A stretch of 56,929 nucleotides of DNA from Planctomycetota bacterium (GTDB lineage: Bacteria; Planctomycetota; B129-G9). The translations under genes and the position numbers were made by a program. This document shows, one piece after another, positions 42,606 through 43,059 of this stretch. The stretch's first letter is position 1. Each line of letters opens with the position of its first letter. Location of the stretch: contig JBDRIB010000264.1 of the NCBI GenBank assembly GCA_043816375.1, positions 1-56,929 on the forward strand, written 5' to 3'. The notes under the pieces are model-generated. The model did not search any database. It was not told the origin of the DNA and saw only the letters and a list, made by a program, of their open reading frames with translations.

Positions 42606-43059
42606 ACGCAAAAGGTGACTGTCACCAATTACGGAGTCGAGGGAGCCCGGCGAGCGAGATTCGTAGATTAGTGACTGTCATCCTTTTGCAACGAGAAAGT
42701 CGGGGCGTAGAATAGAACAGGTCCTGGGATGCCTCGGGGACAGTCCACAGCACCGAGATTCGTAGATTAGTGACTGTCATCCTTTTGCAACGAGAAAGTC
42801 GGGGCGTAGAATAGAACAGGTCCTGGGATGCCTCGGGGACAGTTCACAGCACCGAGATTCGTAGATTGGTGACTCCGCCACACACATTGGCGGACAAGTG
42901 TCACTAATTATTCAAGTTGACTGACTTTTTTCTGACGGAATTCGAGGTTTAACCGTATTCCTTTGGCAAACAGCATCTTTCGGTGACAGTCACTAATCTA
43001 CGAATCGCGCTCGCGTTGCTCACGCGATTCCGTAATTAGTGACAGTCACCGATATTAAC
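42606..43059. repeat. intergenic repeat locus 9 (largest cluster: doublet, 99-bp unit x2, split core, unique segment, inverted doublet)
   Basis: Cores or core variants at 42614, 42670, 42769, 42868 (split), 42982 and 43038. The tandem 99-bp units begin at 42656 and 42755, with a third unit starting at 42854. The locus ends with core-GATATTAAC, 15 nt before the gmhA start. Confidence 0.92.

Follow-up and report, generated by a model that had tools for sequence, protein, structure and literature searches.

The window analyzed here is the contig C264, a stretch of 56,929 nucleotides (nt), from a metagenome-assembled genome (MAG) of a Planctomycetota bacterium (314 contigs, 2.73 Mb, 56% G+C). At positions 42982–43050 of this window lies a 69-nt doublet of palindromes composed of GGTGACAGTCAC (core), TAATCTACGAATCGCG (arm), CTCGCGTTGCTCA (13-nt center), CGCGATTCCGTAATTA (arm), and GTGACAGTCACC (core). 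The doublet is immediately preceded by a leader module and is followed, 23 nt downstream, by the GTG start of a gmhA-like open reading frame (ORF), named from its translated sequence. We assign a probability of roughly 0.8 to the reading that the 69-nt unit is a non-autonomous doublet of repetitive extragenic palindromic (REP) sequences, of the kind described as REPIN (REP doublet forming a hairpin) or BIME (bacterial interspersed mosaic element), and that its enzyme is most likely an HUH-Y1 transposase (HUH, histidine–hydrophobic residue–histidine), similar to TnpA-REP or to the REP-associated tyrosine transposases (RAYT), for which the genome has three paralogous genes, each with this core on both sides.

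When at most one mismatch is allowed, the core GTGACAGTCAC matches 52 times over the two strands of the window (approximately 30 sites), against 0.61 expected; none of 100 shuffles equals this number. The palindromic core is GTGAC(A/T)GTCAC (11 nt). The short arm word alone is weak evidence, with 13 matches in the window against 5.8 expected. Cores are present at all ten loci where the first-pass annotation of this sequence had placed doublets, the one at 5634–5770 being a longer composite with a split core. The start-to-start spacing of cores is 56 nt at 25779, 27619, 42614, 42982, and 50303; 66 at 6947; 58 at 16778; 55 at 20175; and 52 at 38877. Cores beyond these ten loci are seen at 46443–46510 and as extra copies in the composites starting at 16730, 25693, 39058, and 50216.

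In the whole MAG, the core occurs 825 times exactly and 1198 times with one mismatch, at 607 loci, that is, one locus per approximately 4.5 kb. The distance between successive cores has a sharp peak at 56 nt (155 cases, the 69-nt doublets) and lesser peaks at 28, 44, 48, 58, 86, and 102 nt. Orientation is unambiguous in 154 of the 155 doublets with spacing 56, which read core-AATCTACGA-center-TCCGTAATT-core, and this family accounts for all of the most frequent 16-mers in the MAG (up to 226 copies). The cores are mainly intergenic: 79% of them fall in the 12% of the genome outside long ORFs (crude ORF calls cover 88%). Convergent, tandem, and divergent intergenic regions hold 31, 76, and 23 doublets, respectively, approximately in the background proportions (352, 1142, and 343). 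A CRISPR-like array (clustered regularly interspaced short palindromic repeats) was ruled out, as there is no regular repeat–spacer series.

The 154 oriented doublets represent 110 distinct sequences. Single-linkage clustering with at most five differences places 135 doublets in one network, because recognizable subfamilies, e.g., GAGTCTCGGTCGCAGCGCTCCCTCGACTC, GAATCGCGCTCGCGCTGCTCNCGCGATTC, and GAATCTCACTCGCCGGGCTCGTTCGATTC, are joined by intermediates; a separate cluster of 13 is characterized by GAGCTGGCCCCGATAAATCGGGGCTGCGCTC. An identical twin elsewhere is found for 69 of the 154 doublets, and a relative within one mismatch for 113. The centers of the 69-nt units, described earlier as locus-specific, turn out to be specific to subfamilies. 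The copies at 42982–43050 and 50303–50371, initially described as almost identical, have 3 differences in 69 positions; for each of them, a copy on another contig is closer, with one difference. Some centers are direct repeats (CTCGCTCG twice) instead of pairing sequences, and the copy at 42614–42682 is a chimera of two subfamilies.

As single-stranded DNA (ssDNA), the doublet at 42982–43050 folds into one long hairpin at −22.9 kcal/mol (z −7.1) for the + strand and −25.2 kcal/mol (z −7.5) for the − strand, and none of 200 shuffles is as stable; the fold of the chimeric copy at 42614–42682 is poor (−10.2 kcal/mol, z −1.8). In the arms, the successive paired segments are AAT/ATT, TACG/CGTA, and AATC/GATT, and a single C is bulged out on each side. 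Pairing was counted on 98 distinct 69-mers under a 29-pair hairpin model that includes these bulges. Standard pairs are seen in 90% of the cells, and two-sided changes at 11 pairs, with 117 double-change cells; none of 500 shuffles reaches these values, and sliding the partner by 1–3 columns decreases pairing to 22–44%. Pair 13–57 is C-G in 61 sequences, U-A in 33, and G-C in 2; pair 23–47 is A-U in 76 and G-C in 20; pair 28–42 is G-C in 70 and A-U in 17; and pair 29–41 is C-G in 50 and G-C in 23. Both the long stem formed by near reverse-complementary arms, proposed at first pass from the window, and the compensatory changes that were suggested there as its check are thus observed across the genome.

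The strands of the doublet are not equivalent in folding. The frequent A.C mismatch at pair 2–68 corresponds to G.U (or G.T) on the opposite strand, and because the A.C mismatches become G.U there, folding is more stable for the strand that reads core-AATTACGGA...TCGTAGATT-core: the RNA fold of the main consensus has −34.7 kcal/mol on this strand and −26.8 kcal/mol on the other. The same strand is the sense one in 57 of 76 tandem gene contexts, and many copies of the doublet are followed by CTTTT. These features, together with the role of E. coli REPs as mRNA stabilizers (cited in PMC6006769), speak for the doublet being primarily a structured RNA (a 3′-end stabilizer, terminator, or small RNA), with selection on the hairpin acting in the transcript and the spread being secondary. 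However, G-U pairs are rare in the alignment, and the pair changes are nearly all from Watson–Crick to Watson–Crick; the doublets occupy all intergenic types at background proportions, approximately a quarter being antisense to the neighboring genes; and insertion into the lagging-strand template would account equally well for the bias in orientation and for the G.U asymmetry. Rfam yields no match to the locus even at E ≤ 1 other than a chance one to OxyS (15.9 bits vs. 75), and only a tRNA in the whole window at the gathering threshold. As a primary RNA role also leaves the transposase linkage and the TTAC junctions described below unexplained, we consider it improbable, and the structured RNA with a variable apical loop, offered at first pass as one of two options, has found no direct support; a secondary role at the RNA level, e.g., as a 3′-end hairpin or terminator, may exist.

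Sequence tags adjacent to the cores distinguish two types of REPs. The tag (C)GTAG-AT(T) is found on the 5′ side of approximately 400 cores, and the variant GTAA-T(T) on that of approximately 400 others. When each core is read on the strand carrying its 5′ tag, GTAG-AT(T)-tagged cores strongly prefer T as the loop base (400 vs. 9), and GTAA-T(T)-tagged cores strongly prefer A (396 vs. 8). Both REPs share the stem GGTGAC-N-GTCACC and stand tail to tail around a 25-nt center. Since the tag and the loop base are coupled, the doublet is a tail-to-tail heterodimer of two related REPs, in the terms of PMC3733652. The conserved tetranucleotide GT[AG]G of REPs is present 5′ of the hairpin. At 42982–43050, a GTAG-tagged REP read on the − strand stands tail to tail with a GTAA-tagged REP read on the + strand. 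The two types can be compared with REPs Y and Z in the BIMEs of E. coli.

Junctions between modules have a recurring form. Doublets with the core spacing of 102 or approximately 89 nt are ordinary ones in which a 46-nt or 33-nt hairpin, respectively, is inserted into the arm precisely at the boundary of TTAC and GG. Of the 57 copies of this hairpin in the genome, 43 (plus 8 offset cases) come directly after TTAC, the background frequency of TTAC being 0.23%; its hosts are doublets of several subfamilies, it also occurs after CTATTTAC of another module, and no duplication accompanies it. The leader module TCAAGTTGACTGA... (40 copies) stands after NTAC in 19 of 40 cases. Many doublets are, in turn, enclosed between TTAC and GTAG by a second tagged palindrome pair, GGACCTGTTCTATTTAC ... 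CGTAGAATAGAACAGGTCC. The recurring grammar is, therefore, an inverted REP ending in TTAC, then a cargo, then GTAG and a REP. Judging from this arrangement, the Y1 enzymes of the genome probably make the TTAC junctions.

The leader, (TAC)TCAAGTTGACTGAYTTT..., is observed ahead of cores, frequently beginning after TTAC or NTAC, and has two forms, a short one with 29 nt to the core and a long one of approximately 72 nt. Its copies in the window are at 42911–42981 and 5781–5800, and in the sister genus introduced below the leader motif brackets composite elements (loci L063 and L046).

No target-site duplication is seen at the doublets: of five bases on each flank, 0.95 on average are direct matches, compared with 1.15 when the partners are shuffled. 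Since the cores are palindromic, a breakpoint anywhere within them leads to an identical sequence, and other repeat modules make up most of the flanks. The doublets are short, numerous, and intergenic, with inverted ends, as would be miniature inverted-repeat transposable elements of a classical DDE insertion sequence with the cores serving as terminal inverted repeats. This interpretation is, however, very improbable: apart from the lack of duplication, junctions after a fixed tetranucleotide are the behavior of Y1 and not of DDE enzymes, and the core-bracketed genes found, upon examination of the flanks of ten Y1 genes, encode Y1 transposases only.

These ten genes comprise all Y1_Tnp (PF01797) genes of the genome. 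Three of them are paralogs (on contigs C250, C283, and C274; 62–73% identical) bracketed by the core on both sides, and the two flanks of each form a gene-specific inverted repeat of 24–28 nt. The C250 gene has a core pair (loop A, then T, 55 nt apart) on each side, and its ortholog in another genus (G004, 60% identity) has double-core flanks arranged in exactly the same way. The three proteins (222–231 amino acids, aa) retain the HUH and Tyr motifs, read SNH(V/T)H, RLWE, Y(I/V)EWNP, and YSSA, and carry a C-terminal tail of approximately 85 aa. Their sole sequence match in the PDB is E. coli TnpA-REP (4ER8, 21.5 bits). No Pfam matches are found in the tails of the approximately 225-aa Y1 proteins, and a 334-aa paralog has a weak match to Bac_DnaA_C (E 0.027, below the cut-off).

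Tails of the proteins from C274, C250, C75, and C178 end in basic, AT-hook-like (R/K)GRP(R/K), with a weak match to Pfam AT_hook for C274 (E 0.013), and the extended REP arms beside these genes are AT-rich (AAAATTG/CAATTTT). The remaining seven Y1 genes (C267, C139, C163, C178, C75, C50, and C132) each have their own flanking inverted or palindromic repeat, e.g., ATAGGGACTGTCCCTAT, GTGAACTAAAGGGGTCAGACCCCTTTAGTTCAC, TTTTAAGAACCGTTCTTAAAA, and GGCACGGTCTTAAGACCGTGCC, with 3–45 genome copies each. Such a set of transposase–palindrome pairs is unusually large for a 2.7 Mb genome.

By motifs and length, the three core-flanked transposases look like members of subclass 2.1 (RAYT Group 1, largely transposases associated with terminal inverted repeats, TIRYTs), whose signature is NHVH, W[EQ], YIELNP, SS, approximately 238 aa, and a C-terminal tail (PMC6006769, Table 1); they would fall outside the REP-associated groups (Groups 2/3 of Bertels; subclasses 2.2 and 2.4–2.7 of Quentin). 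A further trait of subclass 2.1 is a C-terminal domain resembling a helix-turn-helix (Bac_DnaA_C, HTH_23, or HTH_28), to which the weak Bac_DnaA_C match of the 334-aa paralog relates. In subclass 2.1, REP-like sequences are described as absent from the vicinity of the genes, and only terminal inverted repeats with the consensus GGGG[AT][CG]A[CG] are reported (PMC6006769, PMC3733652). The core as GGTGACAG matches 7 of 8 positions of this consensus, and an inner repeat at the C274 gene, GGGGACAC, matches all 8. In the literature, 16-mers flanking Group 1 genes are rare, with 12 occurrences against 57 for Group 2 and 140 for Group 3; here, those flanking the core-bracketed genes occur 216–226 times in the genome. 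Homologs from many phyla (33–56% identity) have ..AGGGACAS.. repeats approximately 60 nt upstream and 30 nt downstream, and one planctomycete homolog has TGGGGACAGTCACC, a single base from the core. From these comparisons, the core looks like the terminal repeat of this lineage, made a perfect palindrome and amplified.

Several observations weigh against the assignment of the doublets to these enzymes or, more generally, against mobility. The NCBIfam model REP_Tyr_transpos (REP-associated tyrosine transposase) scores 74.7 bits, below its cut-off of 80. The usual description is of one RAYT per REP family; here, three paralogs, each with its own extended arms, share a common core. The C274 and C283 genes, but not C250, which has cores only, also possess an inner inverted repeat (G)GGGACACTCA, located where homologs in other phyla have their terminal repeats; therefore, the cores could be neighbors and not the enzyme's own substrate. 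Compensatory change in a DNA palindrome can also result from templated repair within the hairpin, without selection. No pair of empty and filled sites was found at sequence-level resolution, no close genome spanning the loci, and no direct evidence of doublet movement was obtained. Finally, the MAG is fragmented, and the repeat is seen at the ends of 45 of its 314 contigs, so that the counts and contexts are incomplete.

Comparison of genomes links the repeat to the enzyme. Among 41 related genomes, the transposase clade, defined by at least 60% identity, is present only in the three genomes with at least 21 cores (550, 488, and 21) and is absent from all 38 genomes with at most three cores. 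The relatives with the same repeat are labeled as Planctomycetota MAGs from Guaymas Basin sediment. In a sister genus (Guaymas B129_G9, approximately 71% identical in coding DNA), each side of the doublets consists of an identical (100%) 22-nt core-plus-arm, and the spacing is again 56 nt; the center differs, yet is again self-complementary, TCCGTTCCGACAAGG(G/T)CGGAACGGC, and no doublet is identical between the two genomes. Three syntenic intergenic regions, delimited by conserved genes, were compared: in two of them, repeats occupy the site in only one genus, the other having an empty site, and the third contains different composites in the two genomes. Since the arms and cores are identical while the centers and sites change, constraint acts on the cores and tags, i.e., on recognition, and the center and positions turn over within lineages.

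This conservation bears on one more interpretation, namely, that the core could be a site for a dimeric host protein (a nucleoid-associated protein, gyrase, or a regulator) and that the repeats could be kept for chromosome organization or regulation. Indeed, the 13-nt core is a near-perfect dyad, invariant in two genera; the directly repeated centers mentioned above do not pair; and E. coli BIMEs bind IHF (integration host factor), gyrase, and DNA polymerase I (cited in PMC6006769). On the other hand, protein binding alone would not yield 600 dispersed loci with twins, nested insertions at TTAC, and flanking of Y1 genes, and no candidate binding protein was identified. As the primary explanation it seems improbable; as an added role of a REPIN, host-protein binding is possible.

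Locus L023 (JAUXGI010000403, Planctomycetota CSMAG_2925) is 93% identical over 1.16 kb to the region C124:1700–2100, with a core at the same spot, which is lone in one genome and the end of a larger GTAG-tagged composite in the other; clusters seem to grow at existing cores. DNA search of the genome with a 93%-identical contig (G041) matched only repeats and not the genes around the locus, and an exact-protein look-up of the gmhA-like ORF found no other assembly of the locus on record. The left flank of the doublet, which is itself the repeated leader module, had no match when metagenomes were scanned for it. Doublets of the sister-genus type are also observed on contigs L036 (QNAH01000440, “Zixiibacteriota” B117_G9) and L055 (QMOK01000286, “Chloroflexota” B10_G9) from the same Guaymas sample, both of which are probably mis-binned.

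The alternative left open by the first-pass annotation, a REPIN-like replicative element, agrees with the dispersed population containing twins, the compensatory pairing, the intergenic location, the core-flanked Y1 genes, the co-occurrence of the repeat with the transposase clade, and the divergence of centers between lineages. We infer the following scheme of its activity, in which the Y1 enzyme would be the catalyst. Either strand of the doublet would fold into a hairpin of approximately 30 bp, and the enzyme would bind the tagged REP hairpin on ssDNA, e.g., on the lagging-strand template, and cut the partner REP beside the sequence complementary to the tag (TTAC or CTAC). Joining of the ends could then copy doublets into new intergenic sites, swap the cargo between TTAC and GTAG, and build mosaic clusters.

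The element is of a known kind and represents a new example, in an uncultured marine-sediment family of Planctomycetota. Similar to the REPIN–RAYT system of Pseudomonas fluorescens SBW25 (PMC3116915, PMC5581495), an inverted REP pair forms one long hairpin; hundreds of intergenic copies are dispersed in the genome as a master sequence with mutational neighbors; these REPs also stand on both sides of a Y1 transposase gene; and the pattern in related genomes resembles vertical inheritance, with each lineage having its own population. The differences are a shorter unit (69 nt, with 56-nt spacing); a perfect 6+6 palindrome as the REP stem, with the loop base as the sole asymmetry; REPs of different types in a doublet (GTAG/T and GTAA/A); three paralogous transposases per core, with motifs that fit subclass 2.1 (Group 1) and not Groups 2/3; and the host phylum, Planctomycetota.

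With E. coli REP/BIME and TnpA-REP (PMC3333891; 4ER8), the system shares the GTAG tag 5′ of the hairpin, dimers of two REP types, and mosaic clusters with variable linkers. In vitro, E. coli TnpA-REP requires GTAG and the hairpin for binding on ssDNA; its cleavage site on the inverted REP overlaps CTAC, and linkers are cut as well (PMC3333891); this cut site is at the same position as the TTAC/CTAC junctions of the genome studied here. In contrast, the similarity of the proteins to 4ER8 is only the 21.5 bits mentioned above, the palindrome of the REP in E. coli is imperfect and bulged, and the E. coli enzyme (165 aa) lacks the C-terminal tail.

Two further types of elements share features with this one. 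The IS200/IS605 insertion sequences (IS608, ISDra2, and miniature derivatives) likewise combine subterminal hairpins with an HUH enzyme of the Y1 type. Their insertion occurs 3′ of a fixed tetranucleotide and duplicates no target sequence, and their orientation bias is that expected for the lagging-strand template. The target tetranucleotide of IS608 is TTAC. However, the Tyr motif here is Y---NP (class 2; Y(I/V)EWNP) and not Y---Q (class 1), and the repeats are far more numerous than the genes; the paralogs, being only 62–73% identical, are therefore not recent copies of an insertion sequence. In the TIRtrons of TIRYTs (PMC3733652), which correspond to subclass 2.1 (PMC6006769) and RAYT Group 1, the protein length and the motifs NH(V/T)H, WE, Y(I/V)EWNP, and SS agree with those observed here, and the flanking inverted repeats here may correspond to the reported GGGGWSAS; some families of terminal inverted repeats are self-complementary and occur in dimers or clusters (PMC3733652). 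The high copy number of the flanking 16-mers and the GTAG tags, as in classical REPs, set the present system apart from Group 1.

The doublets, composites, and related modules of the window are as follows.

5634–5770, + strand: composite doublet, its outer core split and a 33-nt hairpin nested between GGGTAATT and the center; followed by the leader module in reverse orientation.
6947–7025, − strand: doublet with spacing 66 and the center CCCCGAC..AT-rich..GTCGGGG.
14343–14355, no strand assigned: lone core just upstream of an ORF, inside a 46-nt segment between 16-nt direct repeats.
16730–16937, − strand: four-core composite, the reverse complement of 25693–25895; holds the doublet 16778–16848 (spacing 58).
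20175–20242, + strand: doublet with spacing 55 and the center CTCGCTCGCC..CTCGCTCG.
25693–25895, + strand: four-core composite with the doublet 25779–25847 of the GAGTC subfamily, the most abundant one.
27619–27687, − strand: degenerate doublet with the left core GGGGACCGTCACC.
38877–38941, − strand: short doublet with spacing 52 and the center GCGAGCCCGAAGGGCGAG.
39058–39262, + strand: composite of GTAG-tagged modules and degenerate cores.
42614–42682, − strand: 69-nt doublet with arms from two subfamilies and a poor fold.
42655–42852, + strand: two tandem 99-nt units, each CCTTTTGCA..GTCGGGGCGTAGAATAGAACAGGTCC..GGGGACAGTCC..CGAGATTCGTAGATTA with a core at the end.
42866–42904, − strand: core split at its center by a hairpin insert of approximately 25 nt, GTGACA/CTTGTCCGCCAATGTGTGTGGCGGA/GTCACC.
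42911–42981, + strand: leader module of approximately 72 nt, TTCAAGTTGACTGACTTTTTT...GGCAAACAGCATCTTTC, just before the focal doublet; approximately 40 genome copies, often starting after NTAC.
42982–43050, + strand: focal 69-nt REP doublet of the GAATCGCG...CGCGATTC subfamily.
46443–46510, no strand assigned: two long perfect palindromes, AAAATTG-core-(T/C)AATTT, with loop A, then T, 55 nt apart.
50216–50371, + strand: three-core composite; its final 69 nt (50303–50371) are the doublet of the window nearest to the focal one.

The arrangement at 46443–46510 is that flanking the transposase genes, although no transposase is present there. The split cores at 42866–42904 and 5635–5679 both contain a hairpin of approximately 25 nt, TCCGCCAATGTGTGTGGCGGA, at the central base; hence, the loop of the core hairpin can itself take insertions. 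At 14325–14402, the core and 30 further bases lie between identical 16-nt direct repeats ACAAGGAGGCACTGAT, which duplicate the ribosome-binding region of the downstream gene, in contrast to the duplication-free junctions elsewhere. Some repeat modules contain promoter-like hexamers (TTGCAA-16-TAGAAT and GTGACT-18-TAGAAT, both being consensus matches only) at 42686–42713, 42785–42812, and 39191–39220 on the + strand and at 50314–50285 on the − strand, so that the repeats may supply outward promoters. Apart from this family, a 9-nt tandem repeat CATTCCNCC of at least six units is found at 46589–46642, within a long − strand ORF (46583–48310), where it would encode a Gly/Met-rich repeat.

REP/REPIN–RAYT systems belong to the small number of mobile elements for which vertical persistence in bacterial lineages is assumed and, to our knowledge, have been studied almost solely in Gammaproteobacteria. 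The same population structure is now seen in uncultured sediment Planctomycetota, where the arms are 100% conserved between genera and the center turns over. In practical terms, the repeat breaks assemblies, and it could serve as a lineage marker, as it flags contigs apparently binned into other MAGs. To specialists, the apparent subclass 2.1 transposases and the very regular grammar of tags and loop bases may be of interest. No RAYT group is larger or more widespread than Group 1/TIRYT, which published descriptions present as lacking REPs. Tentatively, and with somewhat less than an even chance of being right, we propose that Group 1/TIRYT enzymes drive this population of at least 1000 copies of REPs and REPINs built as GTAG/GTAA heterodimers, with exchange of cargo at TTAC, which would make it the first high-copy REPIN system for Group 1, and a non-proteobacterial one. 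If the subclass assignment is true, the core would provide a concrete candidate substrate for the Group 1/TIRYT enzymes.

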